Source: an uncultured bacterium
GTDB taxonomy: Bacteria > Actinomycetota > Acidimicrobiia > Spongiisociales > UBA5794
Assembly (NCBI GenBank): GCA_963844835.1
Contig: CAWJPT010000002.1
Span: 58,009 to 122,008 of the forward strand
DNA: 64,000 nt
Reading direction: 5' to 3'
The notes beneath the pieces were generated by a model that saw only the letters and a program-made list of their open reading frames with translations, did not search any database and had not been told where the DNA came from. This document shows, in pieces, positions 1-28,757 of this stretch. Made by a program: the position numbers and the translations under genes. The stretch's first letter is position 1, and every line of letters begins with the position of its first letter.

Positions 1-1287
1 TGAAACGAACGGATCATCTCGGCGACGTCTCGCAACGGAGGGGCCTTGAGCCGCCGCTCGCTGATCGGCCGAGTGTGGTCACCGCTCAGATCCAGCATGT
101 AGAACTCGCCGTCGATCAGGCGCAATTCGTCGAGGCGGTAGTTGCCATGGATGCGGGTGCGTCTGCCACTTGCCGGCACCCGGCGCACCTGATTGATCAC
201 AGTCAGCATCGCCGGCTCCGCTCCGAGCAGAGTCTCGAGGTCGCTGTGCAAGTCGTCCGGTGCCTGGTCGAAATGATTGCGAATCGAAGTCAGCTCCTGT
301 TTCACTCCGGCACGCAGCGATTGATACAGGGAACGCTGATACAGGGTGGTTACCGGAGCCGGGCGGAGCTCGGGCTCCTCTGTCTGGGTAGCGAGAGCCT
401 GATGGAACTCAGCAGTCGTCACGCCGAGCTTCGTTGCGTACGTGAGGGTGGTATCGAGGGCTTCGGATACGTCGGTGGCCGTCCGGGTGCCTTCCACCAT
501 CCAACTCGTTACCGGTACTTCCGCGGGTGCAGGGACGTCACCGATCTGCTCGAGATAGGTGAGGCATAGATCGCGGAACAGCGTCCATGCAGTGATCTCG
601 GGATCGAGATTCTTCTGCATCATGCCGAGGCTGAACGTGTCGCGTGATTGGTATCGAGCGCCCCGTACACCGGAGAGAGGTTGTTGAAGCTGGTGCGATC
701 GGTCAGGTAGCGACGCAATTCCAGATCTGGGTGTGTCCCGGGCTCGATGTTGCGGAATAGCTTGAGAGTCAGATCGGGCCCGTATTGGATGAAGGTCTCG
801 CCCTGTGCCGTCTGCTGGAGGCGAGGCATGGTGTCGGCATCGCCGAGCTCGATATCGGATACCCGGGCGTGGCTCCACACGGCGCCGGTGCGACCGAGCA
901 TCTCCCGACCCTCGACGATCGCCCCGTACAGGGCAAGGCAGAATTCGGGGTCATACACCGCGTCGACGAGACGTTTGGGGCCTTCGCCGTGATCGATGAA
1001 TGCCACCGTCGCTTCGTCGGGCAGCGAATCGTCCTCGGCGGCTCTCATGCTGAGCGGCATCAGATAGCGCTGGGGCGGACCTGTGACGTACTCGATGTCG
1101 AGCAGCACTATCCAACCGACACGCGCTCCTTCGTCGTCTGCGATCGGGATCGCATCGAACGTCGATGCGCTCAGCCGTCTCTTGCCCCGATCGGCGTACC
1201 AAATCTGGTGCTCGGCGTACCTTGGCGAGGTGGCTGGGCAAATGGGTGGTCACTGCTGAAGAGATCCTCGACCGGGCCATTCACCAT
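1..1287 (-). CDS. Maltokinase (Pep2/Mak-like), 3' part off-window, frameshifted; may be fused to upstream TreS
   Basis: ORF 620-1108 has the Mak N-cap/kinase motifs 'LKLFRNIEPGTHPDLELRRYLT' and 'QRYLMPL'; lies directly downstream of treS; reading frame broken by indels. Confidence 0.75.
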
Positions 1288-2967: not shown

Positions 2968-3057
2968 TCGCCCAAGATTAGGGTCATAGGTCGCGCGGTG
3001 GTCAACACGTGGTTTGAGAGCGCTAGTTTTTAGGGTAGCACGAGTAAGGAGAATGCG

Positions 3058-4637
3058 GTGTTGCAGCTGAACGGTATCGATCTGAAGAACGTCGGCACGG
3101 TGCACCACAATCTGTCTACGCCGGCTCTCTACGAGGAGGCCGTCCGACGCGGTGAGGCGATGCTCGGTCATCTCGGCCCGCTCGTGGTCAGCACCGGCAA
3201 GTACACGGGGCGTTCCGCCAACGACAAGTTCGTCGTTCGAGAGCCATTCACCGAAGACATCATCTGGTGGGGCAAGATCAACAAGCCATTCGATCCGGTC
3301 GACTTCGACAAGGTTCTTTACGGGCTCCGGTCCTATCTGCAGAACAAGGACATCTTCGTTCAGGACGGCTACGCCGGTGCCGACCCGAAGTACCGCATCA
3401 GGGTGCGCGTCATCAGCGAGCATGCCTGGCACAGCCTGTTTGCCCGCAACATGTTCATCCGGGAGTTCGATCCCGAAGTGATTGCGGCGTTCGAGCCTGA
3501 CTACACGGTCATCCACTGTCCGAGCTTCCAGGCGGATCCGGAGCAGGAGCACACCGCGAGCGAGGCCTTCGTCCTGCTCAACCTCGATCGCAAGATGGTG
3601 GTGATCGGTGGGACCAGTTATGCAGGTGAGATCAAGAAGTCGATCTTCACAGTGATGAACTACCTGATGCCTATTCGCGGCGTGCTCAGCCTGCACTCCT
3701 CCGCAAACGTTGGCGTTGCACGGTGATCCGGCGGTGTTCTTTGGGCTGTCCGGCACCGGCAAGACCACGCTCTCGACCGAGGCCGACCGGGCGCTGATCG
3801 GTGACGACGAGCTCGGCTGGAGCGACGAGGGGATCTTCAACTACGAGGGTGGCTGCTACGCCAAGATGATCCGATTGTCCGATGAGTCTGAGCCGGAGAT
3901 CTACCAGACCACTCGCCGTTTCGGGACGGTCCTCGAGAACGTGACCATCGATCCGGCAGACCCGCAGGCTCGATCTCAGCGAGGCATCCACAGAGAACAC
4001 CCGCGGGGCATATCCCATCACTCACATCGACAACATCGTCGAGGGGTCGATGGCGGGGCATCCGAAGAACATCTTCATGCTAACGGCCGACGCGTTCGGG
4101 ATACTCCCGCCGATCGCCCGGCTCGACGAGGCGCAAGCCAGGTACCACTTCATCTCCGGTTACACGGCCAAGGTGGCGGGAACCGAGCGCGGTGTGAAGG
4201 AACCACAAGCAACCTTCTCAGCTTGCTTCGGGGCGCCGTTCATGCCCCTGCATCCCACGGTCTACGCAGACCTGCTCGGCAAGAAGATCCGCGCCCATGA
4301 TGTGCGTGTGTGGCTGGTGAACACCGGCTGGACCGGCGGGCCATACGGGGTCGGGACCCGTTTCAAGATTGCTCACTCCCGGGCAGTGATCCGGGCCGCG
4401 CTCAACGGCGATCTCGATACGGTCGAGTTCCGGCAGGATCCCGTGTTCGGCTTCGAGGTTCCGGTGGAATGCCCCGGGCTGCCCACAGAGCTGTTGACCC
4501 CGAGAGGGACATGGGATGACCCGGAGGCATACGACGCAAGGGCGGAGGAACTAGCGGAGCTCTTCCGCGTCAACTTCGAGGAGTTTGCAGAGCTGGCCGG
4601 TGCCGAGTTGACCGCAGCAGGACCGGTGGCACGGTAA
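3058..4637 (+). CDS. pckA: Phosphoenolpyruvate carboxykinase (ATP), frameshifted near 3715 and 3960
   Basis: '[12 protein letters not shown]', '[10 protein letters not shown]', '[13 protein letters not shown]', 'IGDDE', 'FSACFGAPF' across three consecutive ORFs. Confidence 0.93.
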
Positions 4638-4647
4638 GGCGCCGTCG

Positions 4648-6148
4648 GTGACGAGTGCTTTCGCCGACTACGACTCATTCGACGCAGTTGGCTTGGCTGC
4701 GCTCATCGAGTCGGGCGAGGTGACCGCTGCCGAGCTCATCGAAGCCGCAATTGACAGAGTCGAGGCCATCAACCCGACGATCAATGCGGTCATCGTGAAA
4801 CATTACGAGCGTGCCAGAAGGCGGGCCTCTTCTGGCACGCTGCCCGGGCCGTTCTTCGGAGTCCCATTTCTCACCAAGGATCTCGCCAACGTCGCCGGAG
4901 ATGTGGTGAGCTATGGCTCGGTTTTCTTCCGTGACTATCGGCCGGACACTACGGATGAGTACCAGCTGCGCACGGAGAGAGCAGGTCTGATCTCGATTGG
5001 GCGGACCAACTCGCCGGAGTTCGGGCTGTTGCCGACGACCGAGCCGACATTGCACGGGCCCACGCGCAATCCGTGGGACACGGAGCGGTCTCCGGGTGGC
5101 TCGAGTGGCGGGTCAGCTGCGGCAACTGCTGCGGGCATGGTCCCCATGGCGCATTCGAGTGATGGAGGTGGCTCCATCCGAATCCCTGCAGCCGCATGCG
5201 GAGTCTTCGGTTTCAAGCCGAGCAGGGGGCGCATGCCGCGCTTTCCACCTTCACCTGCCGACTACCTCTCGATAGATCTCGCGGTCAGCCGCTCGGTGCG
5301 CGACAGCGCGGCGCTGCTGGATGTCACCCATGGTGCTGTTGCCGGCTCCGAGTACTACGCCCCACCACCATCTGGTGCTTTTGCCGCTGCAGTGGAGCGG
5401 GAGCCGGATGTGATGCGCATCGCCATCTCGACGGTTGACTTCCGTGGCAGGAACACTGCGCGGGAATGCCGCGATGCGGTGCACGCAACCGCCACTGAGC
5501 TCAGCGATCTTGGTCACAAGGTCGTCGAAGCCAAGCCCGAAATCGACGGTCAGGCCATGGCTGAAGCGTTCTTGATGATCTGGGAATCGCTGGCGGAGTC
5601 GATCTTCAACATCATCATGACCGAGGCGGACAAGACGCGGGTCGGCCATGTGCTGCGGCTCCTGCTGGGCGAGTGGCGGGCTATGAGGTTGATCAGCAGG
5701 ATCGACAAGATGCGAGCGGGCCGCGATGCATTCGAGCCCTTCACCTGGCGGTTGGCGCAACTGTCCCGAAAGCACACTCCGGCACAACTGATCGCGGCAC
5801 GCACCGAGCTGCAACAGGCGTCCTACCATTTTGCCGAGTTCTTCGAAACCTACGACTCGCTGCTGACCCCGACGCTCGGTGGCACCACCACTGCGTCTTG
5901 GCGAGATCGACCAGGAAGCCGCCTGGTCCCGGATCGTCGAGCAGCTTTTCGACTACGTGGCTTTCACGCCGATCGCCAATTTCACCGGGTCGCCGGCTAT
6001 GTCGGTACCGGCGTACTGGACGTCGTCGGGGCTACCGATCGGCGTCCACTTCATGGGGCCGCACGGTGACGAGGAACGAATGCTGTCGTTGGCAGGTCAG
6101 CTGGAACGAGCCATGCCTTGGTCGGGGAGACGGCCGGCTATCGGATGA
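4648..6148 (+). CDS. Amidase-signature family protein, frameshift near 5885
   Basis: '[12 protein letters not shown]', '[16 protein letters not shown]'; C-terminal '[16 protein letters not shown]...GLPIGV' in ORF 5879-6148. Confidence 0.88.
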
Positions 6149-6647
6149 TGGCGGCGTAGGAGCGGCCGAACCTCATGTAGACGTCGACACCCTCGCTCTG
6201 GCGGGCGATTTCAGCTTCGGTGAGCTCACGGACTGGCTTGGCCGGAATTCCCATTGCCAAGGTCCATGCCGGGATGCTCTTGCCTTCGGTCAGGATCGAA
6301 CCGGCCGCCAGCCACGAGCCCTCTCCCATCACCGCACCGTTCAACGCTCTGGCGCCGATACCAACCAGACAATGCGAGCCAACGGTTGCCCCATGCACGA
6401 CCGCGGCATGACCGATAGTCACCCGATTCCCGATGTCGATGGGCAGCCCAGCATCGACGTGAAGCACACTGTTGTCCTGGATGTTGGTCTCTGTGCCGAT
6501 GTGGACCCAATCCAGTTCGGCCCTGATGACGGTGCCGAACATGATCACCGCATCCCGACCAACGGTTATGTCGCCGTAGAGGACGGCAGTGGGGGCGACG
6601 AAGGCGCTCGGGTCGATCGATGGTGTGCCGATGCTGATCTCGCTCAT
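6138..6647 (-). CDS. Gamma carbonic anhydrase family (hexapeptide repeat) protein
   Basis: 'NIQDNSVLH', 'TIGHAAVVHGATVG'. Confidence 0.88.
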   Translation of the reverse strand: MSEISIGTPSIDPSAFVAPTAVLYGDITVGRDAVIMFGTVIRAELDWVHIGTETNIQDNSVLHVDAGLPIDIGNRVTIGHAAVVHGATVGSHCLVGIGARALNGAVMGEGSWLAAGSILTEGKSIPAWTLAMGIPAKPVRELTEAEIARQSEGVDVYMRFGRSYAAIIR

Positions 6648-6813
6648 GGGTCTCCTCGCTGGTGGCTCGCGATTGTCGCAGAATCACAACCGATCACTTG
6701 GAGAGTAGGTAGCGACCTGAGGCGTTGCGTCTCCGGAAGGTTGCCCGTATGCAGACCGGTGAGAGTCGTCCTAGCGCTGCAGTCGAAGTGTGCCGCATGG
6801 GAAACGCTGGAGA

Positions 6814-7272
6814 CTATCGGTGCTCTTCGACGATGGGTGCGGGCACTTTTCCTTCGCGAAGCACGGCATCATCGCTGGCGATCTTGGCGAGCGTAGCGCT
6901 GCGCAGCTGGTCGGAGAATGCATCCTTGGCCGCCATCCAGACCCAGTGGATTGCGCACGCTCTCTCCCAATGGCAGGGTCCACCATCGAGAGCGCAGGCA
7001 GGCTCATCGTTGCGACCCTCGAGTGCCTGGATGATGTCGTGCAGCGTGATGGCTCCGGGGTCCTTTGCCAGCGTGTAACCGCCGGTGCGCCCGGGCTGAG
7101 AGTCGACGAGATCGGCCCGGCCGAGCTCTTGCAGAACCTGACGCAAGAAGCCGACGGGTATGTCCATGTCCTTGGAGATGACCGGTGCGGCGAGGCCATT
7201 TGGATAGCTTTGGGCAAGGGTGATCAAGGCTCGTACGCCGTAGTCCGTGCGGCGGGTGGGAACGATTTTCAT
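6814..7272 (-). CDS. Rrf2 family transcriptional regulator (IscR-like, 3 Cys + His)
   Basis: 'TDYGVRAL', 'GRTGGYTLAKDPGAITLHDII', C-terminal C-x6-C-x5-C-x2-H. Confidence 0.88.
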   Translation of the reverse strand: MKIVPTRRTDYGVRALITLAQSYPNGLAAPVISKDMDIPVGFLRQVLQELGRADLVDSQPGRTGGYTLAKDPGAITLHDIIQALEGRNDEPACALDGGPCHWERACAIHWVWMAAKDAFSDQLRSATLAKIASDDAVLREGKVPAPIVEEHR

Positions 7273-7280
7273 GGATGCCA

Positions 7281-7312
7281 GTGTAGGTCGATAGATAACT
7301 CGACGGCTACAC
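7281..7312. promoter_or_regulatory. Inverted repeat upstream of the Rrf2 gene, candidate operator
   Basis: GTGTAG-GTCGA-tagataac-TCGAC-gg-CTACAC just upstream of the Rrf2 start codon. Confidence 0.45.
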
Positions 7313-7333
7313 ATTTGGTTCGAGTTCCGCGGC

Positions 7334-8369
7334 TCAGCCCAGATGCTCCCAATCGAGAATGACCTTGCCGCACAATCCGGTACGCATGGTGGAAAACGCG
7401 GCTTCGTATTCCTCTGCCGCGAACTCATGGGTGATGACCGGAGAGACATCGAGGCCGGTGTGAAGCATCGCGGTCATCAGATACCAGGTCTCGAACATGC
7501 GTCGCCCATAGATGCCCTTCATGGTGAGACCCTTGAAGATGATCGTGTTCCAGTCCATGGGCGCGTCTTCCGGAGGTATACCGAGCAGCGCCACTGAAGA
7601 CCCGTGATTCATTGTCTCCATCATCTCGTGGAGAGCGATGCGGACTCCGGACATCTCCATGCCGATATCGAAACCTTCGGTCATGCCGAGCTCGTCCATA
7701 GCTTTCCTGAGCGAGGTCCGATTGGTGTTGATGGCGAGGTTGGCACCCATGCCGGCCGCGATGTCGAGCCGAAAATCATTGATGTCGGTGACGACGATAT
7801 AGCGCGCTCCCGCGTGACGGGCGATTGCGGCCGCCATCATCCCGATCGGCCCTGCCCCTGTGATCAGTACGTCTTCGCCGACGAGGTCGAACGAGAGCGC
7901 GGTGTGCGTCGCGTTTCCGAGCGGGTCGAGGATGGTGGCGATGCGGTCCGGGATCTCGTCTGGGACGGGGAACGCGTTGAAGGCAGGGATGGTGAGATAC
8001 TCGGCAAAGGCGCCTGGTCGGTTGACGCCGACGCCGACCGTGTTGCGGCAGAACTGTCTGCGTCCTGCCCGGCAGTTCCGACAGTGCCCACAGGTGACAT
8101 GGCCTTCACCCGAGACTCGTTGACCCACGTGGAAGCCCTGAACCTCCGAGCCGATCGCATCGATGACACCGACGAACTCGTGACCCACTTGCATACCCAA
8201 TCGGGATGGTCTGCTGAGCCCAGGGATCCCAGTTGACGATGTGCAGGTCGGTGCCACACACGGCTGTCTTGACGATCTTGATCCGGACGTCGTTGTGGCC
8301 GACATCGGGAATGGGCACGTCCTCCATCCAGATTCCTGGCTCGCCCTTGGCTTTGACCAGGGCCCTCAT
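7334..8369 (-). CDS. tdh: L-threonine 3-dehydrogenase, frameshift near 8200
   Basis: 'MRALVKAK', 'CGTDLHI', 'GHEFVG', '[10 protein letters not shown]', 'GAGPIG'; adjacent to kbl. Confidence 0.93.
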
Positions 8370-9559
8370 TGGATCACCCCCAGCTCACGGCCGACCTTGG
8401 TGAAGGCAGCGACGGCATGATCGATGTGGGCGTCGGTGTGAGCCGCCGACATCTGCGTGCGGATCCTGGCCTCGCCCCGCGGCACGACTGGGAACGAGAA
8501 CCCGATCACATAGATGCCCTCTGCGAGGAGGCGATCTGCCATCTCGGTGGCGAGCTTGGCATCGCCGAGCATCACCGGAATTATCGGGTGGCCGCCCCCG
8601 GCGAGCGTGAAACCCGCCGCCGTCATCGATTCACGGAACCGGTCGGAATTGTTGCGCAGCCGGGCACGGAGCTCGTCGGAGCTGCGGAGCAGATCGAGCG
8701 CGGCCAACGAGGTAGCTGCGATGGCCGGAGCCAGCGAGTTCGAGAAGAGGTAGGGTCGAGATCGCTGTCGTAGCCAGGCAACGATCTCTTTGCGCCCGGA
8801 CGTGTAGCCGCCTGATGCTCCTCCCAGGGCCTTGCCGAGCGTGCCGGTAATGATGTCGACGCGTCCCATGACGCCGCAGGACTCGGGGGTACCTCTGCCG
8901 CCCTCGCCAACGAAGCCGACAGCATGTGAGTCGTCGACCATGACCAGCGCCCCGTATCGATCGGCGAGATCGCATATTGCGCTCAGGTTGGCGATGATCC
9001 CGTCCATTGAGAAGACGCCGTCAGTGGCAATGATCACGGTGCGGGCCGTTGCCGAAGCCTCTTTCAGCTTCGCCTCCAGATCGGCCATGTCGTTGTTGGC
9101 GTACCGGAGTCGCTGTGCCTTCGAGAGTCGTACCCCGTCGATGATCGACGCATGGTTGAGCGAATCGGAGATGATGGCGTCCTCCGCACCGAGCAACGCC
9201 TCGAACAGCCCGCCGTTGGCGTCGAAGCAGGACGAGTAGAGGATCGTGTCCTCGGTGCCGAGGAAGTCGCTCAGTTCCGCCTCGAGCTTCTTGTGGACGG
9301 TCTGGGTCCCGCAGATGAAGCGGACCGATGACATTCCGTAGCCGTACTCCGTTACCGCCTGCGCCGCCGTCTCCACCAGGAGCGGGTGGTTGGCCAGCCC
9401 GAGGTAGTTGTTGGCACACATGTTGATGACTTGTTTGCCATCTTCGAGAGTGATCACCGCTTGCTGCGGTGATGCGATGATTCGCTCCTCCTTGAACAGC
9501 CCCGATGTGCGGAGCTCGTCGGTTTGGGCTTCGAGTTGCGCGAGAAATGCTGCGTCCAT
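8366..9559 (-). CDS. kbl: Glycine C-acetyltransferase (2-amino-3-ketobutyrate CoA ligase)
   Basis: '[11 protein letters not shown]', '[10 protein letters not shown]', '[14 protein letters not shown]', '[11 protein letters not shown]'. Confidence 0.95.
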
Positions 9560-9578
9560 ATCGCCTCCCGCGCAGATT

Positions 9579-10604
9579 CTATCTGGCGAGAAGCTCGTCT
9601 CCCCTGCGCGCAGCAACTGTCTGAGTGTCGTCTCGCTCGATCGGCTCGGGGAAGACCACCCGGCCATAGCGATCTGTAACCCGTGGCCTCTTCGGCAACG
9701 GCTCGGGCGGAGTCGTCGGAGGGCGGTCGCCGATCACGTCGAGGGGTGCGTCCATCGCGTTCTCCGACGCAGGGGCGGGCGCTGCGGGCGAGCTGAAACT
9801 GAAGTGGTTGCGGCCGATGCGTCGTGATATCTCGATCCGGGTGTCGAGTGCCTGTGCCAGGGCAATAGCGATACGCGGCGGCGTGGTCGGTTCCGGGGCG
9901 TCGTCGGATACGGTGCATACGATGGATGTGCCGTCTCGCGCCGCTGCAACATCAATCTGGCGGCAACCTCGCTCGATTGCGGCGGTGACGAGGCTACGCA
10001 CCAGTACCCGGAACGCGGTCGGATCGGTGTAGGCGAAGTGTCTGGTGCCGGTCTTGGTCACGTCCGCCTCAGGGAATCGGGCGGTGGCCAGATCGATCTG
10101 GTCGCGCAGATCGACAAGGGTGAGTTCGACGGGCGCGGTGTCGCTCTCCAGTCGGATCTGGGTGAGTGTGTCCTCGGTGAGCGCCTCAGCGTCCCGGGCG
10201 TGTGAGGTGAGCAGCCTGACACTGTCGAGAGTCAAGTGGGGATCGGTGATCCCGTCGGCAACGATTTGCTCGCCGATCGTGATGATGCGCTCCAGGATCG
10301 CGGCATGGTCGTTGAGCCTGTCCCGGAATGCTGCACTGTCGGCCCGACGGGCACTCTTCTCCGCATCGACTTGACGTCGCAACACGTTGTGGCGCCTTCG
10401 CGTATGAGCAACGAGTAGTCCGTGATACCCACCGACCAGCATGAGCCAACCCGCCGCCCCGAAGGCGACCAGCCATCCTGCGGGACCGTCTGGGGCAGAC
10501 ATGATCACAACGAGCAACGGTGTTATTGAGATCACACCCACGACGAGGGTGATGAGTGCACCGGCCCGCAATCGTGGGCTCGCCGGCTCCTGTCTCGTTG
10601 CCAT
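9579..10604 (-). CDS. Membrane protein resembling a degenerate sensor histidine kinase
   Basis: Two N-terminal TM helices, coiled coil, HATPase-like '[16 protein letters not shown]...VSDD' lacking canonical H/N/G boxes. Confidence 0.5.
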
Positions 10605-18468: not shown

Positions 18469-18542
18469 GGGCGTTTAGCTCAGTTGGCTAGAGCGCCTCC
18501 CTTACAAGGAGGAGGTCACTGGTTCGAGTCCGGTAACGCCCA
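18469..18542 (+). tRNA. tRNA-Val(TAC)
   Basis: Full cloverleaf: acceptor GGGCGTT/AACGCCC, anticodon arm CCTCC-CTTACAA-GGAGG, T-loop TTCGAGT; CCA not encoded. Confidence 0.97.
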
Positions 18543-18544
18543 CG
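18497..18544 (+). repeat. att core, copy within tRNA-Val
   Basis: CTCCCTTACAAGGAGGAGGTCACTGGTTCGAGTCCGGTAACGCCCACG. Confidence 0.92.
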
Positions 18545-18659
18545 ATGAGGAACCCTAGCAATAGGGGGTTTTCTCAATGGTGGCGGGGGATTCGGCGTTG
18601 CTGGGTATTGCTCGACCGGTAGTCCACGATATCGGTAGATATGTCTCAAGTATGCCTGG

Positions 18660-18682
18660 CCCACGGACACTTTGCGGACACC
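18660..18682 (+). repeat. 23-bp direct repeat copy 1, candidate integrase arm site
   Basis: CCCACGGACACTTTGCGGACACC, identical to 25833-25855. Confidence 0.8.
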
Positions 18683-18712
18683 TCGGTGGTATCGGCTATC
18701 GTTGCGAGGACT

Positions 18713-19480
18713 ATGGGTTTTGGAGTTGCCGTCGCGGTTCCTGATGGAGTTGCCGTCGCCGCCGACGAGTCGCGTTTCGGCGTCGGTGAGCGGAGGGCCG
18801 CCCGCGATTATGTCGGATACGCAGCAGAAGATCATCCAGGTATCCAACTATGTTCGCGGTAATCACGATTGAACAGTATCTGTTCAGTCCAGGAGTACAG
18901 GTCAACACACGAGCAATCATCGAGCGTCTGCAGCCTGACATACAGCGAGAGTCGTATCTAGAGGATGTCATCAGTGAGATTCTGGCCGTTTTCGGTCGGC
19001 GGCCGATCTGACCGAAGAGGAGTCTGCAGCTCTCACTCTGCGGGTCGTTGGTTACAGTCAGAGGGACCGGGCTGTGAAAGTGCTCTTGATCGAGGGTCTA
19101 GGTGAGCCGAGACCAATGCACTCAACCGCGATGCGCGGCATCGACTGGTTCGGATACACGAGCATCGCTACGAGAGGGCTTCTCAAGGGGCTTGACGAGT
19201 CACTCGACGCGGATGAGCGAGGACTCGGAGCGGAGTTCATTATCTCGACGCCGCTCATGAGTCTGAATGACGCTCTAGACCTTGCGGAGACCTTTGTCCA
19301 GACAACCGCCACATTCGCGAAGTATGTTCGGGGCATCCAGTTGGCGCACGCAGAGACCGCCGAGCCGGTCGTCGAGTCACTAGCGCTGGTCGTTGGAGGT
19401 GAGGTGCAATCTGCCGTGGTTCGCCCCGGTGGCTTCGAGTGGGTCAAGCGACGCGCTGGGCCGTCAGCCTCTCGGAGACT
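18713..19480 (+). CDS. Proteasome-subunit-like Ntn-hydrolase family protein, frameshifted
   Basis: N-terminus 'MGFGVAVAVPDGVAVAAD(E)SR..SDTQQKII'; C-terminus 'SLNDALDLAETFVQTT...VGGEVQSAVVRPGGFEWVKR'. Confidence 0.55.
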
Positions 19481-19882
19481 AGCTAGCAGCAGCTGCCGTT
19501 GGGGTGGGTGGAGCCGCAATGTGGTGACGGTCAAGAGCGTCTCGTTGGTTTGTTGTCCCACGTTCATCCCACTGATCAGTCACGATCGATCTGGCCCGGA
19601 GGACGTTGTGGCGCGGAGCGCCCAGGCGCCAAGCGCGAGTCCTATGTCGGGTTCTGCCCATGCCGCGCTCGACGCTTCAGACAGGATCCGGCGCGCTTCG
19701 GCAGACTCAGGACGGTCATCGCCCTCGATTCACGATCGGTAGAGAGCGTCCGTCAGAGACTCGAGCGATTTCGTCTTGTCTAGGTACGCAGTTACAAGTG
19801 CGAGGGAGTTCATTGGCATATGCTCCTTCATAGGTACGATTGTATCGCATACTTGAGCGTCGACGCGGCGGATATATAACCA

Positions 19883-20215
19883 ATGGCGAAAGATGTTCCG
19901 CCCATAAGAGCTGTTGACGAATGGGACCTTCGACATCTCTACCGGAAAGAGTGTCTTGCCGAGCGCTTGGCGAGCGGCGGGTTCTACGCCTCGTTGTAGC
20001 AAGCGGTTTGGCGTCGCCGACTTCTAACCAGCCACCGGGTACGACGAGTGAGCTCGTTGCCTATTTTGACCGGTCTCAGGTCGTTGCTGAGGTCCATCAG
20101 TTTGTCCACGCGGACGGCACCATTGGCGGATCTGGCCGTCCAAGTCCCCAAGATGGTGGTGTCCGGTGGTGTCATGTATGTCTTGCGCCCCCCTTGGGGT
20201 CGGACCGCGACCTGA
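19883..20215 (+). CDS. Hypothetical cargo protein, frameshifted
   Basis: Reconstructed 'MAKDVPPIRAVDEWDLR...VAEVHQFVHADGTIGGSGRPSPKMVV'. Confidence 0.45.
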
Positions 20216-20511
20216 GAGGAGAGACGAGCAGAAATCCTTCGGGGAGAAAAAACGCGCCCACAACCCACGCTTGTGCGGTCCCCTGCGAGGGGGGGTCCCC
20301 CCCACCCCTGTTTGCTCTCAGGTCGCATGTAGAGGGCCGTAAACGGTTGCTGGTGTGGTTGCTGTAGGCCGTTTAGCGCTTGTGTGTGCGTGACTGTGGG
20401 GCCGTGGGGGCCTGGCCTGGGGTCTGGGGTGCTGCTGTTTCAACATTCGATACTGCTGTGCCTGTAGCGTCGTGCATCTGGCCCCATTCGTCGAATAGGA
20501 TCGTGCGGCCT

Positions 20512-20880
20512 TTATGCGTCGCACATGGCAGCCGGTACCATCCGCTGCCGTCGCTGTAGGCTTCTCTGCGTTTCGCGCCTTCCACTGGTACGCATCGGGG
20601 CATGTCCGGCTCTGATGCTGCGGAGCGACGGTCGCCTTTTTGTTGGTTGCATCGAAGATGCGACCCAGGCGCAGTTCTCATCGGTGTCGGGTCCGCCCAT
20701 CGCAACCGGGATGACATGATCTATCGACCATGACCCGGGGTGCGGGAATCTCAATGAGGGGTCGATTTCTTGGCCGCAGAGGTGGCAGATCGTCGGATCG
20801 CCGATCTCGCGGAGTTGACGCCGTTTGATCCGGGCCGATCGTTGCCGCGTGTACTCGCCGCTTGGCCGTCTAGTCCCCAT
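20512..20880 (-). CDS. HNH endonuclease, frameshifted near the C-terminus
   Basis: 'CHLCGQEID...SIDHVIPVAMGGPDTDENC' continuing in another frame as 'HLRCNQQKGDR'. Confidence 0.8.
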   Translation of the reverse strand: MGTRRPSGEYTRQRSARIKRRQLREIGDPTICHLCGQEIDPSLRFPHPGSWSIDHVIPVAMGGPDTDENCAWVASSMQPTKRRPSLRSIRAGHAPMRTSGRRETQRSLQRRQRMVPAAMCDA

Positions 20881-20883
20881 TGT

Positions 20884-21219
20884 TCACCGGGGGTCGATCT
20901 CAAAGCATGGTCCGGGTCGGTAGCCACGCTGTGGCCGGTACAGACGGTGCTTCTTGGTGAGCTTGAGGATCTCGGCCAATGATGCGAGCCTGTAGTTGTC
21001 TCGGAATGGTGCGATGGCGAGGATGTCTCCCACCCTGCCGTCTCGAACCTTGAGGTCGGCGACGAGTTGCGGATCGATCCAGACATGCGACGCCGCCGGG
21101 CCGGGTCGGGTGTGAACTCCTGCTTCGAGGTCGGTCGGGTCGCGGCTTGCTGACTGCCATCCGGTAGACCCGCATCCAGCCTGCCGGCGAAGATCCTCGA
21201 GTTGCTGGTCTGAGGTCAC
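20884..21219 (-). CDS. Hypothetical protein of the element
   Basis: 111-aa ORF co-oriented with and directly upstream of the HNH gene. Confidence 0.4.
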   Translation of the reverse strand: MTSDQQLEDLRRQAGCGSTGWQSASRDPTDLEAGVHTRPGPAASHVWIDPQLVADLKVRDGRVGDILAIAPFRDNYRLASLAEILKLTKKHRLYRPQRGYRPGPCFEIDPR

Positions 21220-21439
21220 GTGAGGATTGCCACGCTTTCAGAGTGTGTTGGCGTTGCCGGTGGCGATGATCTTGCTGGCGTCGAATTGGGGATAGTAGTC
21301 GGCCAATGTCTCGGCTGGCTTCTCGGCTGCTTCGAGGATCTCGGCCACCGCGTCCCTGATCGGGCCCTCGATCAGTCACATCGCAGTTTTCGGTGAGCCA
21401 TTCAGTGATTCGCCGGCGCAAACGATGTCGGCCGCTTGA

Positions 21440-21872
21440 TTTAAGCGGCGCCGGATCTGTGGCTGTCGGCGTGCACCTTGGCTTCGGCCACCTCCCGGCG
21501 AGCTTCCTGCAGGGTGCGTCCGGACATCACCAGATCGGCCGGTTCCGGGATGCGCACTGTCTGCCCGCTTCATCTTGCCGATCTCGGCTTGCCGATCGAG
21601 CAGGTTGGCCAAGGTCGTCGGGAATGTCGATCTGCTTGAGCATTGCCGGCAATGACGGCGGTCGATTTTGCGTCTCAACTTGTCGACCCCCAGGATGTTG
21701 TCAACGATGCGCTTGGGTTTGTGCGTGTTCGGCCTCGGCGGTGGCGAAAATGTCGGCCAGCTCGGTGGCCTCCGTTCATCGGTTTCGGCCATCACCACCA
21801 AGGCCCTGGCGTCGGACAGCGAGATCCCGCCTCCTTTGCGATTTTGGCTGCCTCCTTCGAGTCAATCGCCAT
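21440..21872 (-). CDS. Hypothetical helical protein, frameshifted; 3' end approximate
   Basis: RBS-like sequence (AAAGGAAA) then 'MAIDSKEAAKIAKEAG...ARALVVMAETDE...RIVDNILGVDKLRRKID'. Confidence 0.35.
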
Positions 21873-21941
21873 TCGAGTTTCCTTTCGAGGAGGGGAACCC
21901 GAGGGAATGCACACTCCCCCTGGGGTCCCAGCCATGGCTGC

Positions 21942-22421
21942 TCAGGTCACTGTGGCTTTTCGCGCTTTTCGTGTTGCGTCCCATCGGCAACGATCGGAGC
22001 AATACAGCCTCGGCCGGCCACGTCGGTTTCTGTGTGATCGGTGCCCCGCACCGTTGACATGTTTCCGGGTGTGGCACTCGGTCCAGCGACGAGGACTCTG
22101 CAGATATCGGGTTGCTGCTGGCCTGACTGACGGCGGTAGATAGTCGTCAACGAGTGCGAGCAGATCACGGGCTGCTTTGATGTGTTCGCTCCCCACCATC
22201 ATGTCATCGCACCACTCGCGGATCCGCCGCCACCACTTGGCCAGCACACGGCGCAATGTCGCCTCGGGACAGTGGTGCGGCCCGTCTATCTCGATGACCT
22301 GCTGCCGGAGGTGGTCAAGTAGATGCTCATCGAGCTGGTCGGCGTCAACGGTGCGTCGACACTCGCTGCATGTCCATGGTGGACCGCCTTCGATCGCTGC
22401 TGTCGGAACGTAGAGCTTCAC
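21942..22421 (-). CDS. One or two small zinc-finger hypothetical proteins
   Basis: 'CSECRR...HLLDH' and 'CQRCGAPI...GRPRLYCSDRCR' motifs; start overlaps the helicase stop. Confidence 0.5.
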   Translation of the reverse strand: MKLYVPTAAIEGGPPWTCSECRRTVDADQLDEHLLDHLRQQVIEIDGPHHCPEATLRRVLAKWWRRIREWCDDMMVGSEHIKAARDLLALVDDYLPPSVRPAATRYLQSPRRWTECHTRKHVNGAGHRSHRNRRGRPRLYCSDRCRWDATRKARKATVT

Positions 22422-23872
22422 TGGTGTGTCCCCCCTTCGATGATCTCGCCGCCGAGCATCTCGGTGATGTTGACGAGCGCCTCCGATTCGGTGACTGGTT
22501 CGAGTGCGTTGAGCGACTCACTGTCAGGGTCTGCGTCTGGAGTGTGTGCGTGTGCGTTCTCTACAAACGCACTGACGCACTCACCACTACTGCGTTGACG
22601 CACTGGCAACGCACTGGAACGCACTGACGCACTGACGGTGTGAAGATGACTATTTTGGGGTCCGGTTGTCCGGTCGATGACGCCCGCCTCTATGCCGCGT
22701 CTGAGAGCATCCCGGATAGTCTTCTGCGTATGGTCACTGTCATCTAGTGCCCTTTCAATGGCCCGTCCCGATAGGCCAACGTCGGATGCTGTGAGCACTT
22801 CGATAATGGCGTCGAGGGCCTCATCGGTGGCCGTGTCATGTCGACTGCCGCCACCGATTGTGTAGTGGTGGTTCTCAGGGTCGAACACAATCAATTGCTC
22901 AGACTGGTCGACGTCCCGCCCGTACGCTTTGATGTAGCACGGGGATGCCAAGTCATCGGCGTCTGCCTTAACCAATTTCCATTCGGCGTCTGGCCAATCA
23001 CGCCACCGGGAGTCACCTCGGGGTCGCTCTTTACTTCGTCCACCGGTATCGGCCTGGTGGCCCATATGGTGGCAAACAATGATCTCAGAGACACTTGTGT
23101 GCGCCCGTAGTTCGTCCAGCCGTGCTAGCCACCGACCCACGTCCCGGTTCTCATCGAGTCCCGCAGCATCAAGGCATGGCCGTGCCGGGTCGACGATAAG
23201 CATGGCGCATCGGTCCTCATCGAGTACTGCGACCCAATACCAGAACGTCTGCTCGTCCATGATGTTGAACGCTCCAGCGCATCCGCGGAGATCCACCAGT
23301 TTGACGGCGTCAACGTTTCGGATGCCTTGCAACTTCAACCAGCGTTCGTCTAGTCCCCGCCCGTTTTCGAGCGATAGGACATAGACGGTGTGGCCGGGGT
23401 GGATAGGTTCAACCGGGTATTGCCCAAGCCACGGGTCACCGTCAACAACACTCCGCACTAGGTTGTTGCGAGCTGTTGACTTCCCCGCTTTAGCCTGTGA
23501 CGACAACACGCCGTTTCCACCCTTCGGTAGCCACCCTGCGATACGTGCCGGGGTCTCCCGGTACGGGTTGTGGATCATTTCGGCGAGCGAAATTGCTGCG
23601 GGGATCTCATCAGGTCGGAATTGCTCGGCGTTGAATTGCTCGAGTGCTGCCTGCCGGACTCGCATCCGTTCAACTTCGATCTGTACCTGCCACGAATCGG
23701 GTCGGTGCTCCACCGGGGGTGTAATGATCGACGCCACCCGTTGCTGTTCGGCACAGGTCAATGGCCGCGGTACGTCCCAATCATCAGACGGGCTAAACGG
23801 TTCGACCTTCGATGCTTTTCTTTGATCTCCTCGTCGTGGCGCTGCCGCGGCGTCGGCTGCTCCCGAACCCAT
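22418..23872 (-). CDS. RepA-like AAA_25 helicase (replication protein); true start may be at 23988
   Basis: 'IAGWLPKGGNGVLSSQAKAGKST' Walker A, 'MLIVDP' Walker B, 'VCHHMG', 'PRGDS', C-terminal wHTH. Confidence 0.8.
   Translation of the reverse strand: MGSGAADAAAAPRRGDQRKASKVEPFSPSDDWDVPRPLTCAEQQRVASIITPPVEHRPDSWQVQIEVERMRVRQAALEQFNAEQFRPDEIPAAISLAEMIHNPYRETPARIAGWLPKGGNGVLSSQAKAGKSTARNNLVRSVVDGDPWLGQYPVEPIHPGHTVYVLSLENGRGLDERWLKLQGIRNVDAVKLVDLRGCAGAFNIMDEQTFWYWVAVLDEDRCAMLIVDPARPCLDAAGLDENRDVGRWLARLDELRAHTSVSEIIVCHHMGHQADTGGRSKERPRGDSRWRDWPDAEWKLVKADADDLASPCYIKAYGRDVDQSEQLIVFDPENHHYTIGGGSRHDTATDEALDAIIEVLTASDVGLSGRAIERALDDSDHTQKTIRDALRRGIEAGVIDRTTGPQNSHLHTVSASVRSSALPVRQRSSGECVSAFVENAHAHTPDADPDSESLNALEPVTESEALVNITEMLGGEIIEGGTHQ
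22567..22633 (+). repeat. Six ACGCACT iteron-like repeats
   Basis: Copies at 22567, 22575, 22598, 22609, 22619 and 22627, with inverted GTGCGT copies just upstream. Confidence 0.75.
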
Positions 23873-23984
23873 TCGCCATCGACCATTACCTGTCCGGGAT
23901 CGGCGCTATCCTGTCGCGCTATCGCTGCCCGGCGATTTATCAGGACCCCGCCCCCCGTTAGGCGGGGTTTCTGCATTCTGGGGG

Positions 23985-24190
23985 TCATTCCGCGGCTGCT
24001 TCCCTGGTCCCGGTGCGGGTCTGGTCGTTGAGCCACGCCTCGATGTCGCTGCGCCGGTATCGCACATGTCGACCGACCTTGACGAAAGCTGGCCCTTTAC
24101 CATCGATGAGCCGCCACTGAGCGAGCGTGATCGGGTGTATCCCGAGCTTGGCTGCAAGCGCGTCGGTGTGATTAGCGGGTTAATGGTCAT
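23985..24190 (-). CDS. Excisionase/AlpA-like HTH protein, frameshifted
   Basis: Reconstructed 'DALAAKLGIHPITLAQWR..GKGPAFVKVGRHVRYRRSDIEAWL'. Confidence 0.75.
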
Positions 24191-24287
24191 TGTGATCCTC
24201 GGTTGATACCGCTTGACCCGATAGTCCCACTAGGTGTACGATATGGGAAGAATGTGTCCACGTTGGCAAAACGAAAGCGAGAGACTG

Positions 24288-24787
24288 ATGACACTGGATG
24301 AAGTGATAGCAGAGAACGTGAAGCGGATAAGAAAGATTCGACGACTGTCGATCGAGCACTGGCACGGAGACTCGGGTTGAACCGCTATGTGGTCTACGAG
24401 TTTAAGGGTAGGCGCCGTGATCGACAGCAACGACCGTTTCGGTGGGTGGAGCTGGTGGACCTGTGCGCGGCTTTGCAAGTCAGCCTGTTTGAGCTAGTGT
24501 CTGCCTCAACGGGAGAAGAGATCGATCGGCCGGGGCTAGTACAGGAGTTGTGGCCGACGGACCGCGGACGCGAACTGGCAAGGACACAGGCTGCGCAGTC
24601 GCCTGGATGGATGCTGTTCGACATGGATGGGAACAAGCTAGACCAGAACACGCTGGCACGTTCGCAAGGCTTCGGAAGCGAGAGGATGACGAGATGCTCG
24701 GCGGGATAACGAGTTAATCGGGCCGATGGTGGAGCGAATTCGGCACGACTTGGAGCTTCAGCGCACTCAAGGCAGAGATGCAACTGA
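24288..24787 (+). CDS. XRE-like HTH repressor, frameshifted
   Basis: 'MTLDEVIAENVKRIRKIRRLS...LARRLGLNRYVVYE...ELVDLCAALQVSLFELV'; divergent from the excisionase. Confidence 0.65.
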
Positions 24788-24799
24788 GGAGGACAGCTA

Positions 24800-25830
24800 A
24801 TGGCGCACGTACGCAAACACCCGAAGTCGGGACGGTGGCAGGTTCGATACCGTGACCCGTCCGGCCGGGAACGCTCAAAGACGTTCGGTCGGCAAGATCG
24901 ACGCGGACCGGTACGCGGCGACCGTGGTCGCCGATGTGGTGCGGCGGCCAGTTCATCGACCCGCAACTCGGAAAGGCGACCGTGGCCGAGATGGCCGAAC
25001 GGTGGCTACAGACCAGGCAACATCTCGCGCCGGCGACCCGCAACCAGGACCGCTACATGCTGTCCGTTGCGCTGGAAAGGTTCGGGTCGCGACCGATAGC
25101 GTCGGTGCGAAAGTCTGAGGTTGCCGCGTGGTTGTCGGGGTTGACTGTCGCGCCGGCGACCGCGGGGAAGATGGTGCAGAAGCTGTCGGCAGTGTTCGCC
25201 CTGGCCGTGGATGACGGTGCGATCAAGTGAAACCCTTGTGACGGGGTGCCCGCCCGTCGCAGGCATCGAAACGAACCGGACGGGCATTGACTGACGGTGA
25301 GATACAGACGGTGCTCGATGCCGCGAACAGGTAGACGAACGAGCCGCCACGCTGGTTTGGGTGAAGGCTCGTGCGGTCTGCACGTGGGAGAAGCGCTCGG
25401 GCGGCGCGCGGCGATATCGAGGGGACGACGTTGCGCGTCGGCGTAGTATCGGCAAGGACGGTTCTGTGCGTCCCGTCAAGGGTCGCAACCGTGACGGTAG
25501 GTCTATTCCTATCCCGACCGATCTCGCTGGCCGTCTGAGTCGTCACATAGCGTCACAAACGGTGATGCCGTTGGAGGGGTGGCTGTTCTGCGCCCCGCAG
25601 GGTGGCCGGTTGCGTTATGACAATAGGCGTAGCCGGGTGTGGAGCCGGATTGTCGAGGTTGCCGGGATCGGTGAGGTTCGCCCGCACGATCTGCGCCACA
25701 CGATGGCGACCCGGCTGTTTATGCCGACGGATGGTCGGTGCCGCAGGTGCAAACGTACCTCGGACACATCGAACCGGCGTTAACACTTCGGGTCTATACG
25801 CACATGCGCTGCGGAGCAGCTCCCGCAGCC
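24800..25830 (+). pseudogene. Tyrosine integrase, disrupted (several frameshifts and an in-frame TGA at 25228)
   Basis: Arm-binding N-terminus 'GRWQVRYRDPSGRERSKTF', 'AVDDGAIK*NPC', 'RPHDLRHT', 'LGH...TLRVY'; adjacent to att. Confidence 0.85.
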
Positions 25831-25832
25831 GT

Positions 25833-25855
25833 CCCACGGACACTTTGCGGACACC
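25833..25855 (+). repeat. 23-bp direct repeat copy 2, candidate integrase arm site
   Basis: Identical to 18660-18682. Confidence 0.8.
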
Positions 25856-25915
25856 CTCGAGGGTTGATAGGTCGAATAGCCCGTATTCATTAGAGGATTC
25901 GGGGCTATATACCTA

Positions 25916-25963
25916 CTCCCTTACAAGGAGGAGGTCACTGGTTAGAGTCCGGTAACACCCACG
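25916..25963 (+). repeat. att core, duplicated tRNA-Val 3' half
   Basis: 46/48 identical to 18497-18544. Confidence 0.92.
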
Positions 25964-26334
25964 CGGACCTGCTGGGGCAGGTCCGTTGACAGTTCCCTGT
26001 GGAAACTGCATCGTTGCCAGGCGTCTCAGTTCAGGGACTGTCCTGCCGGGCCCACTGAGCTTCGCTGAGTGGGTTGGAGTTGCTGCGCAACTCTGGCCCT
26101 CGCAGATCTGCCGGGGCAGGCCTACTGGCAGTTTCCTATCTGCTCAAATGACGCGCGCCAGGATCTGGCCCGCAGACGAAAGTGGACTAGACAACAGACA
26201 TCGTCTGCCGCTGTAGCGCTGAACATGTGGCTGAGAAGTCGTGGCTGAGCCAGCTGATGTTGCGCTGCTCCTGGGGTTTGGTGCTGACCCGGAAGCGAAC
26301 CCCGGGATACCGGGCGCACATGTCTTCTGTCGGA

Positions 26335-27215: not shown

Positions 27216-28218
27216 TCAGACACCAGTGTCGGCGCCATCGCCAGGCTGCGGTTCCTGGGGCCACCAGCTGCGTCGGCCGCGTGGTTTCCCGAAGCTCTCG
27301 GGCCACGATTCTCCGGCGAGGTCGCCTGCCATGTCTCGATCTGCGTGCTCGAGCAGCGAATCGAGGTCGAAGCTGTGGTCGTCGATCGTCTCCATCAAAT
27401 CGCCTCGCTCCTCATACCGTGCGGCAAAACCGACCATCGGAAAGTCTGCGAGCTCGGCCTCCGGTACCTCATCCCAGGTCAGTGGAGCAGAGACCCATCC
27501 GGTGGGACGTACCGAGTATGCGCTGGCGACGGTGCGGTCACGGCTGTTCTGGTTGTAGTCGATGAAAACACCGTGGCGATTCTCTTTCCACCACTGTGTG
27601 GTGACGATGTCGGGCCTGCGGCGCTCGACCTCGCGGCCGAGCGCGAGGGCCGCCTTTCGCATCTCGAGAAACGTGTATCGAGGCTCGACCCTGACGTAGA
27701 TGTGAATGCCTTTCGACCCGGATGTCTTGGGAAAGCCAACCAGACCGAAGTCGGTGAGCACCTGCCTTGACCTGCAGAGCCACCTGTTGCACATCGGCCC
27801 AAACCGCCTGTGGCGTGGGATCCAAGTCGATGCGGAGCTCGTCCGGGCTCTCTACGTGCTCTGCCCGCGATGGCCACGGATTGAGGTCGACACAGTTGAG
27901 CTGGGCCATCCAGACGACGTCGGAAGGTGACCTGGGCACGAAGTAGCCGGCGGTCCGTCCCGAGGGGAACTTCACGAAGTATCGCTCGCCCGCTGAAGCC
28001 GGCGCTCGTTTCCGGAAGTACGGCCTCTCTCCGACTCCCCTGGGAAAGCACTTCAGCATGGTCGGTCTGCCGAATACCCCGGTTAGGGCACCGTCGGCGC
28101 ACGCCACGTAGTGCTCGACCAGGTCGAGCTTGGTCCACCCTTGCTCGGGGAACATCACCTTCTCAGGGTGGGTCACCTCGATCTCATCACCGTCGATCGA
28201 GAATCGTGCTTTCTCCAT
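27216..28218 (-). CDS. LigD-type primase-polymerase domain protein, frameshift near 27770
   Basis: 'VTHPEKVMFP', 'PDELRIDLDP', 'KTSGSKGIHIYV', 'FIDYNQNSRDRTVASAYSVR'. Confidence 0.88.
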
Positions 28219-28262
28219 GCGTCGATTCTGCCAGCGTGGTTGGCCTGTCGCCTGCGACGCGC

Positions 28263-28757
28263 TCAGTCGGCGCGGTGCATCACGAGGCATTCTTCGATGC
28301 CGAACAGCCGCTGGGCGCGCAACTCGGCGGGTGGGAAAGCGTGGCGCATCGTGGTCACCGGCACGACCCGCGGTTGATCGACCACAACGGTCTCGCCTTC
28401 GTAATCCAACGTCGCAGAACCGGCGGCGATGAAGTTGCGCAGCCAATCGGTTTCGGCACCGTACGGGAGACCGGTCACAAAAGTATCGTCGACGCGTGTC
28501 ACCCCGATGGGTGTCACATACGGCTTTCCGGACTTCCTGCCAGTGTGATGGAGCACCGCGGCATATGCGCCGGGCTTGCCCGCAGTCTCGAGCTGCCGCG
28601 GATTCATGTACTTCCTGTTCATGCGCCTCACCCCGTTCACTACGAACGGCACTCTGAAGCGCATGCCGAGCAGAAATGCGGCGGCGGCAGTGCCCAATAC
28701 GGCAACCGGAATCATGAGGAGTCTGCTGACTCGGTGGGTACTCGTATCACCGCACAT
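28263..28757 (-). CDS. Deazaflavin-dependent nitroreductase family protein
   Basis: 'HTGRKSGKPYVTPI', 'LPYGAETDWLRN'. Confidence 0.8.
   Translation of the reverse strand: MCGDTSTHRVSRLLMIPVAVLGTAAAAFLLGMRFRVPFVVNGVRRMNRKYMNPRQLETAGKPGAYAAVLHHTGRKSGKPYVTPIGVTRVDDTFVTGLPYGAETDWLRNFIAAGSATLDYEGETVVVDQPRVVPVTTMRHAFPPAELRAQRLFGIEECLVMHRAD

Follow-up and report, generated by a model that had tools for sequence, protein, structure and literature searches.

A stretch of 64,000 nucleotides from contig CAWJPT010000002.1 of assembly GCA_963844835.1 (the window in what follows) carries a 7.4-kb island, at window positions 18497-25963, that is inserted in the 3' end of a tRNA-Val gene. The reading preferred here, at a probability of about one half, is that of an integrative, self-replicating island that depends on a helper for its spread, a phage satellite of the minimalist and cos type. 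Its parts differ in firmness: the island is probably able to excise and to copy its own DNA, and it may travel in the particles of another phage. Acidimicrobiia are abundant uncultured bacteria of soil and water. Descriptions of phage satellites are plentiful for Proteobacteria and Firmicutes, and for Actinomycetota come mainly from mycobacteria and Streptomyces; our limited search of the phage-satellite literature found no mention of satellites from Acidimicrobiia. An earlier interpretation of the same DNA (the sequence-only reading) had taken the host, a soil bacterium, to be Acidimicrobiia-like, and in this it agrees with a host peptidase that is 82% identical to proteins of Acidimicrobiia metagenome-assembled genomes (MAGs). 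What emerges is a compact integrative island that is real and could plausibly live as a satellite, in a lineage for which we found no satellites described. New in it are the paired 23-nt putative arm-type repeats, a putative iteron origin internal to the helicase gene, and an HNH gene of the type found at cos ends.

The island is bracketed by a 48-nt direct repeat. The sequence-only reading had described this att duplication, with its two mismatches, in tRNA-Val; the two copies do agree at 46 of 48 positions, and both mismatches lie in the attR copy. The 3'-terminal 47 nt of the tRNA, which is the sole tRNA in the window (ARAGORN; Rfam agrees), fall within attL. An empty site in relatives had been proposed as a check, and 40 related genomes were searched for it: in G005, a genome of the same genus, tRNA-Val directly joins the sequence that in the window lies downstream of attR, as BLAST and an alignment confirm. 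Because this congener has an unoccupied tRNA-Val site, the 7.4 kb are a true insertion and not core DNA; the region is accordingly not core in all relatives. Just inside each end of the island lies an exact 23-mer that has only these two copies in the 64 kb. In an excised circle the two would flank the att core, a position typical of the arm-type integrase sites of phage attP.

(A note on the site itself, which varies within the genus: in G011 the same tRNA is directly followed, in opposite orientation, by a tyrosine integrase gene other than the window's (about 34% identical) and an excisionase gene (locus L005, G011:C1:70700-75228), and that island is truncated by the contig end. In G003, 13.4 kb separate the tRNA from the LigD gene (L015, G003:C9:62000-80000); this DNA was considered as a further island at the site and rejected, since it holds ordinary host genes, among them a two-component system, MMPL, MFS and GH10, without an integrase. 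In the window an extra 132 bp at 25964-26095, just outside attR, consist of short repeats, about 95-130 bp of them hairpin-rich, and are missing from the G005 empty site. Copies of this repeat, 84-89% identical, are found at G000:C2:8773-8867 and G005:C7:1493-1593, and G002 has tandem copies downstream of its tRNA-Val; it lies outside the island and looks like an intergenic repeat of the repetitive extragenic palindrome (REP) or miniature inverted-repeat transposable element (MITE) kind.)

Between the att sites the sequence-only reading had listed an integrase, an XRE repressor divergent from a unit of excisionase, helicase, small genes and HNH, and cargo at the far end. All of these were found, the XRE gene by a weak match; what must be amended is the state of the frames, all but the helicase being split. 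The helicase is the sole island gene in one open frame, and integrase, XRE gene, excisionase, HNH gene, zinc-motif protein, small open reading frames (ORFs) and cargo each span at least two. The order of integrase, repressor, excisionase and replication gene, with no structural genes, is borne out: a Pfam and PHROG search of all island ORFs and stop-to-stop pieces (the scope of all such searches below) gave no match for capsid, portal, terminase or tail genes, as had been claimed, and none for lysis genes or FtsK. Read in three frames, the integrase contains about seven frame changes and one in-frame stop; as a tblastn query, the integrase of L092, a locus from the host's order, matches it in frames 1, 2 and 1. 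For the excisionase the evidence is a match of piece 23988-24179 to PF12728 (HTH_17) at 7.8e-9, with 36.1 bits over a cut-off of 27, and to phrog_66 at 1.1e-7. The XRE gene and the HTH_17 excisionase are divergently oriented across a short control region with a weak sigma-70-like site; a promoter and terminator scan, whose counts were near those of shuffled sequence, found 3 such sites versus the 1.8 expected in shuffles. From the excisionase on, the order is helicase, a 159-aa protein, about 1 kb of small genes, and HNH. The zinc-binding motif of the 159-aa protein is, read by eye, divided between two frames, and a piece at 21865-22146 resembles PF24331, a mycobacterial phage zinc-binding domain (E 0.0086, below cut-off).

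The helicase retains all the invariant columns of its alignment with relatives. It is without a primase domain; its relatives have Prim-Pol, Toprim or DnaB_N, and what it matches is the helicase portion of two phage primase/helicase families, phrog_2597 and phrog_906. It has 75 relatives, the best at 46% identity. Within the final 80 codons of the gene sits a putative origin (the AGTGCGTC repeats), with iterons at a spacing that is not a multiple of three. An 'EC' is conserved in the helicase protein alignment because the repeat reads GAG TGC. Among 133 related loci, the hexamer AGTG[CT]G occurs 93, 86, 65 and 55 times in the bins of helicase residues 400-499, at most 9 times per bin upstream and in the gene core, and at most 20 times per bin just downstream; at least four copies within 120 nt are present at the helicase 3' end of 42 of the 133 loci, and elsewhere in or around the gene in none of them. 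The layout in the window is nearly colinear with that of L022, and L027, L029, L075 and others have the same iteron layout as well. An iteron cluster in the 3' end of AAA_25 helicase genes recurs in phages, in elements resembling actinomycete integrative and conjugative elements (AICEs), and in islands of Actinomycetota and Acidobacteriota. The cluster would be an origin, bound by the helicase in whose gene it lies. (The islands of the Staphylococcus aureus pathogenicity island, or SaPI, type are arranged in the same way, with an iteron origin beside or within the replication protein gene.) Two 16-nt double-repeat iteron strings occur in none of the literature searched, in which 9-mer matches were confined to papers on unrelated subjects. 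The conserved origin of this helicase family is the most reusable result of the analysis: it offers a testable handle on the replication of many actinobacterial mobile elements, and could mark them for detection.

The HNH endonuclease may connect the island to packaging. Its phrog_338 match is divided between frames, with profile positions 183-249 in one and 251-267 (the H-N-H tail) in the ORF at 20373-20717. There are 307 matches to it in phage records. When 60 of these were sampled evenly, 41 stood first or last among the genes of cos-type actinophages, no more than about 1.1 kb from a genome end, and of the remaining 19 most were in records deposited as prophages. In one prophage, prophiGD17-1, the homologue stands two small genes ahead of terminase and portal, and 48 genes precede it; the island has about 7 genes from integrase to HNH. 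Directly downstream of the island's HNH gene, the stop-to-stop pieces of 19491-20372 have no Pfam or PHROG match and no convincing codon-position GC pattern, and the DNA of 19450-20900 has no match in phage records.

How might such an element work? The proposal, in order: 1) Integrase and excisionase would recombine attL with attR, and the paired 23-nt repeats, each with two CGGACAC, would flank the core in attP as arm-type sites. 2) The helicase would bind the iteron cluster in the 3' end of its own gene and start replication of the circle; priming would be left to the host or to the helper phage, because the island is without a primase domain. 3) The island's HNH nuclease, of a kind that acts with the terminase at actinophage cos sites, would together with a site in the adjacent gene-free 0.9 kb enable the terminase of a helper to cut the island and package it, possibly in multimeric form. 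4) Cargo would be the role of the proteasome-beta-like gene at attL.

Table 1. Features of the island and its integration target, in window coordinates
Feature	Position	Strand	Basis and remarks
tRNA-Val (anticodon TAC)	18469-18543	+	Integration target; ARAGORN; Rfam RF00005, 71.8 bits
attL core	18497-18544		48 nt; same as the native tRNA 3' end of congener G005
Putative arm-type repeat P'	18660-18682	+	Exact 23-mer, 2x CGGACAC spaced 11 nt; 116 nt inside attL
Cargo gene, predicted proteasome-beta-like fold	18713-19490	+	Adjoins attL; at least 3 frames in the assembly
Gene-free segment, about 0.9 kb	19491-20372		Directly downstream of HNH; candidate cos/packaging site
HNH endonuclease, phage packaging (cos-proximal) type	20373-20880	-	PF01844 4.4e-5; phrog_338 3.5e-15
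Two or three small genes, no assigned function	20884-21941	-	Several frames; no Pfam/PHROG family match
159-aa protein, C-terminal zinc-binding motif	21942-22421	-	Start overlaps helicase stop (ATGA)
Stand-alone AAA_25 replicative helicase/initiator	22418-23872	-	484 aa, one open frame; PF13481 2.1e-20
Putative origin	22540-22640	-	6x AGTGCGT[CT], then TGTAGAG, then inverted copy; TRF and sequence
Excisionase, AlpA-like HTH_17	23985-24190	-	Frame break just past the start codon
Divergent control region xis/XRE	24191-24288		About 100 bp; weak sigma-70-like site at 24213-24242 (+)
XRE/Cro-C1-type regulator	24289-24709	+	Two frames; HTH_26 E 0.014, 16 bits, below Pfam cut-off (weak)
Tyrosine integrase	24800-25893	+	Phage_int_M 2.8e-8, Phage_integrase 1.1e-6, phrog_1, on pieces; 3' end toward attR
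Putative arm-type repeat P	25833-25855	+	Same exact 23-mer; 61 nt before attR, in integrase 3' end
attR core	25916-25963		48 nt; 46/48 versus attL; mismatches C>A and G>A

The family of the cargo gene is rare: a phmmer search of 1.84 billion representatives yielded 7 relatives, and the gene was found in 2 of 401 genomes of the class, the window genome included. Its profile match, at 18768-19490, contains 3 in-frame TGA codons and a piece in a second frame. No Pfam family matched it, a word-based protein search returned the window's own protein only, the ESM Atlas gave unnamed clusters, and a scan of metagenomes for the family gave no matches. Members are about 230-320 aa long. An AF2 model of one relative, P0079 (pLDDT 76.3), resembles 20S proteasome beta chains (Foldseek E 3.8e-9, TM 0.5-0.7); the aligned members (P0078-P0084) are without the usual N-terminal threonine and have an invariant H-S-T motif. 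That the cargo region might be a capsid remnant was considered and rejected: tblastn with the L092 capsid, which was blank in the whole island, and with other island proteins found nothing there, and the stop-to-stop pieces are without a Pfam or PHROG match.

What is to be made of the broken frames? Frame changes in the island number about 18-20 in 6.5 kb, or about 3 per kb (counted partly by eye); the host genes, judged by their G005 orthologues, have about 26 in some 48 kb of coding sequence, or about 0.5 per kb. By a heuristic measure, sliding windows without a long open frame make up 76 of 122 inside the island versus 124 of 935 outside. Host genes are affected as well: 15 of about 60 G005 ORFs that match the window (long ORFs, over 60 kb of synteny) map to it in two to six frames, the worst cases being a 1127-aa protein in six pieces and a 568-aa protein in five. 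Broken host genes are scattered throughout the window (3-3110, 27216-28446, 44482-46184 and 61082-62935, for example). The gene of a LigD primase-polymerase beside the island is whole in G005 and G003 and is split in the window at about 27764, a place with one base more than in G005. A contig from the short-read (Illumina) run X1 has 0-1 differences in the flanks and two indels and four substitutions in 336 nt of island. Because host genes are broken, and on the strength of the indels relative to the X1 contig, the assembly can be said to carry many indel errors. The frameshifts were at one point counted as proof of a decayed remnant, a claim that was withdrawn because the G005 orthologues show the same type of break in host genes, the LigD split among them. 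Since host genes in the window are broken too, decay is indistinguishable from assembly error, and the higher density of breaks in the island may reflect either real decay or a poorer consensus in a mixed population. Findings of frameshifts, pseudogenes or short ORFs anywhere in the window accordingly call for caution. The frame breaks may also explain the 67.7% completeness of this 26-contig genome.

Relatives of the helicase occur in several kinds of element. Some are part of full phages and prophages (L023, L029, L097, L099 and Mycobacterium prophages), usually with a Prim-Pol domain. One, L075, lies in an AICE-like locus with FtsK/SpoIIIE and GntR genes. Others belong to islands at tRNA genes with perfect att repeats: L027 (9.8 kb), L058 (7.9 kb), L070 (10.0 kb) and L078 (11.9 kb). 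L070 and L058 have no recognisable phage gene; L031 and L078 carry HNH genes; L092 has a major head protein, no att repeats and an adjacent contig end. Packaging genes borne by small islands or circles with this helicase family (L027, L031, L078, L092 and the plasmid pDJL3) were counted in favor of the satellite reading, as were the compactness of the island and its lack of structural or conjugation genes. Nothing concluded here depends on G027 and G038, two genomes flagged as unpublished.

Several of these loci deserve description for their own sake. L027 (positions 52-9945 of a Nitriliruptoraceae MAG contig, JBJHAX010000064.1) occupies tRNA-Glu, where its 48-nt att repeat is perfect, and encodes an integrase, an XRE regulator, a small terminase (phrog_1496, 8.7e-16) and a DnaB_N plus AAA_25 helicase: four of the five core features of a phage-inducible chromosomal island (PICI), in a non-mycobacterial actinobacterium. 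pDJL3 of Rhodococcus qingshengii (L161, NZ_CP025962.1) is a circle of 15,865 bp, deposited as a non-mobilisable plasmid. Its products include an integrase, a helicase of the window's family, DnaB_N, a protein of the terminase family and a tape measure protein of 1439 aa; its annotation lists no capsid. Possibly this is a satellite-like element in circular form, similar to the EPIP satellites (PMC12822802). L091 (G289:C18:5188-6889), from the host's order, has a helicase relative (44% identical) alone beside tRNA-Arg, with no integrase nearby and with a sulfatase gene and an IS110 transposase downstream; it resembles what would remain of a comparable island. L167 (G010:C253:1474-4730), on a same-genus contig, has an excisionase-like gene whose DNA matches that of the window at 88% over 57 nt; its neighbour encodes a protein of 915 aa with an N-terminus that is relaxase-like by eye, no family search having been made. 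This is a different element, probably conjugative or mobilisable, that has only the excisionase-like gene in common with the window.

A number of observations weigh against a satellite. Neither a small terminase gene (terS), nor a capsid-morphogenesis gene, nor a cos site, nor a helper was identified; the power of the terS search in the island is lowered by the frame breaks and by the diversity of terS, and the search for a helper's capsid (PF05065), TerL (PF03354) and portal (PF04860) found no match in a host assembly that is 67.7% complete. The genome yielded no second copy of the island, and we found no close relative of it; its helicase family was found in 3 of 301 genomes of the host's order, the window genome included. 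The small ORFs and the HNH gene, like the cargo, have no homologue in about 150 loci with helicase relatives. The functions assigned to arm sites, origin and cos site are inferred from sequence. Run X1 (contigs only, 7% of words), the one public DNA run that contains parts of the stretch, with no RNA run containing any, shows no att joints, but its coverage of the flanks and 336 nt of island is too small to bear on excision or expression either way.

The strongest competitor of the satellite, if distinctly less probable, is a remnant: a temperate cos-type actinophage from which the late region, from terS to the lysis genes, and much of the early region have been deleted, and which is now decaying and immobile. 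An intact prophage it is not, with 7.4 kb between the att sites and no terminase, portal, capsid, tail or lysis genes found. The order of integrase, repressor, excisionase, replication gene and HNH is nonetheless equally that of a temperate cos phage minus its late genes, a prophage up to the HNH/cos boundary as prophiGD17-1 exemplifies. The nearest viral relatives of the helicase (44% identity) reside in 49-52-kb phage contigs, and near ones also in 66-68-kb Mycobacterium prophages. The island is a single copy with no related copies found, its two att copies disagree at 2 of 48 positions, and its frame breaks, denser than those of host genes, leave real decay possible. Yet host genes in the window are broken too, and the two indels in 336 nt relative to the X1 Illumina contig make it probable that assembly error accounts for much of the damage. 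Compared with real prophages the early region is about 5x shorter, so that several separate deletions would be needed; the 0.9 kb past HNH hold no trace of a late gene; and the two att sites, the two arm repeats and the origin have remained intact.

Rather unlikely, in our estimate, is an element that does not rely on phages: either an island, AICE-like or mobilisable, or a plasmid that has integrated, which replicates and moves by conjugative mobilisation, vesicles or transformation, and whose HNH is a selfish or defence nuclease. AICEs integrate in tRNA genes, encode integrase, excisionase and a replication protein of their own, and are about 9-24 kb in size. Indeed the set of integrase, excisionase, replication gene and cargo, placed at a tRNA, is generic for islands, and the helicase family is at home in the AICE-like L075 as in L070 and L058 with their lack of recognisable phage genes. 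However, FtsK/SpoIIIE, relaxase and other transfer genes were not found in the island: there is no PF01580 match in it, and the four in the genome are on contigs C7 and C21. Moreover, its HNH family is the one that stands at actinophage genome ends, and the zinc-binding motif weakly resembles a mycobacteriophage domain. That the whole is an assembly artefact, a chimeric join or mis-binned foreign DNA, is very improbable: for all the indel errors and the incompleteness of the bin, the tRNA-derived 48-mer is present at both junctions in the correct orientation, the flanks run colinear with G005 through the site, island and flanks have a similar GC content (56-65% and 58-66%), and independent short X1 contigs cover both flanks and a piece of the island.

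One may go further than the satellite reading does, and see in the island the first member of a family of minimalist cos-type satellites in Acidimicrobiia, with a packaging HNH and a cos site of their own, no terS or capsid gene, and replication from a helicase-internal iteron origin, whose layout (AGTGCGYC repeats, a TATA-like centre and an inverted copy) would be a shared, undescribed cis element linking phages, AICE-like elements and satellite-like islands in Actinomycetota and Acidobacteriota. This larger proposal is speculative, and we consider it doubtful; the new family suggested by the sequence-only reading lacks support in so far as no second member was found. Its appeal is easily stated: a satellite with its own cos-type HNH and with neither terminase nor capsid gene would represent a new hijacking layout. 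The island's value for now is that of a lead, because there is one poorly assembled copy of it and its activity is conjectural.

It remains to place the island among known systems. The sequence-only reading had likened its gene order and supposed helper dependence to those of PICI-type satellites, but membership of the PICIs did not hold. Excerpts of a survey of PICIs by the authors of SatelliteFinder (PMC10085698) name five core components: an integrase, a regulation module (an alpA, merR or stl homologue), a primase-replicase, a small terminase and capsid morphogenesis. The island has the integrase, in frame-broken pieces; it has a regulator, by the Pfam match of its MerR/AlpA-like HTH_17 gene, the XRE piece being weak; and it arguably has the replication module, in a helicase with no primase domain. 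For the small terminase and for capsid morphogenesis no island ORF or piece has a Pfam or PHROG match. With three of the five it is therefore not a member of the PICIs, whose hijacking is defined, as far as those excerpts go, by terS and capsid morphogenesis; elements with three components make up the 'Type C' of the same survey, an ambiguous class of possibly defective PICIs, other elements or chance aggregates (PMC10085698). In the portions of that survey consulted, PICI-type matches are also reported in mycobacteria.

The resemblances to PICIs of the SaPI type are nevertheless evident: small size (the median PICI has 9.5 kb), a terminal integrase, and a regulator facing an AlpA/Xis-type gene (PMC10085698, from extracts). 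Tail, holin, portal and head-tail connector genes, whose absence is expected of a PICI, were not detected in the island. The differences are equally plain. In the island the helicase that serves replication has no primase domain, neither terS nor a capsid-morphogenesis gene was found, and beyond generic domains the island has no sequence in common with known PICIs. It also has an HNH gene, which, to go by the same extracts (PMC10085698), is a core gene of capsid-forming PICIs (cfPICIs) and only occasional in PICIs. It is no cfPICI either: of capsid, portal, protease, head-tail adaptors, terL, terS and HNH, only HNH is present.

Closer in mechanism are the cos-type SaPIs, SaPIbov4 and SaPIbov5, which, according to the sections of PMC5052747 consulted, have no terS, their cos site being cut by the helper's terminase together with an HNH nuclease. 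In the island, too, no terS was found, and the same cos/HNH mechanism is proposed for it. SaPIbov5, as described there, takes its HNH from the helper and carries ccm, which determines capsid size, whereas the island has its own HNH, no capsid gene and no cos site identified.

Equally instructive are the PICMIs (minimalist chromosomal islands inducible by phage), of about 6 kb, with a core of integrase, AlpA-type regulator and replication protein and, in the excerpted account (PMC10803314), no genes for packaging or capsid remodelling. The island is like them in being small and in combining an integrase, an AlpA-like gene and a replication protein. There are differences: PICMIs lie beside fis, have a primase, are packaged as concatemers by the headful mechanism and belong to Vibrionaceae, as the excerpts have it, whereas the island occupies tRNA-Val, has an AAA_25 helicase rather than a primase, and an HNH gene, in an Acidimicrobiia-like host. 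Known satellites that lack terS or capsid-remodelling genes, of which PICMIs (PMC10803314) and cos-type SaPIs (PMC5052747) are examples, count in favor of the satellite reading.

Among the Actinomycetota, phiRv1 and phiRv2 of mycobacteria (PMC10085698) and the EPIPs of Mycolicibacterium (PMC12822802), as far as the extracts describe them, are likewise small phage-derived islands with an integrase that have been scored as satellite-like. EPIPs are 11 kb long and have capsid, terS and tape measure genes (PMC12822802). Taken together, these elements have capsid, terS and adaptor genes and serine integrases, by the same extracts, whereas the island has none of these and a tyrosine integrase. With AICEs the island shares tRNA integration, int/xis and its own replication protein, and a helicase relative (L075) occurs in such a context; unlike them it is without the FtsK/SpoIIIE transfer gene, the Kor/GntR regulator and the spread genes. 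[quoted passage not shown] It is the minimalist and the cos-type satellites, then, that the island resembles in how it may work.

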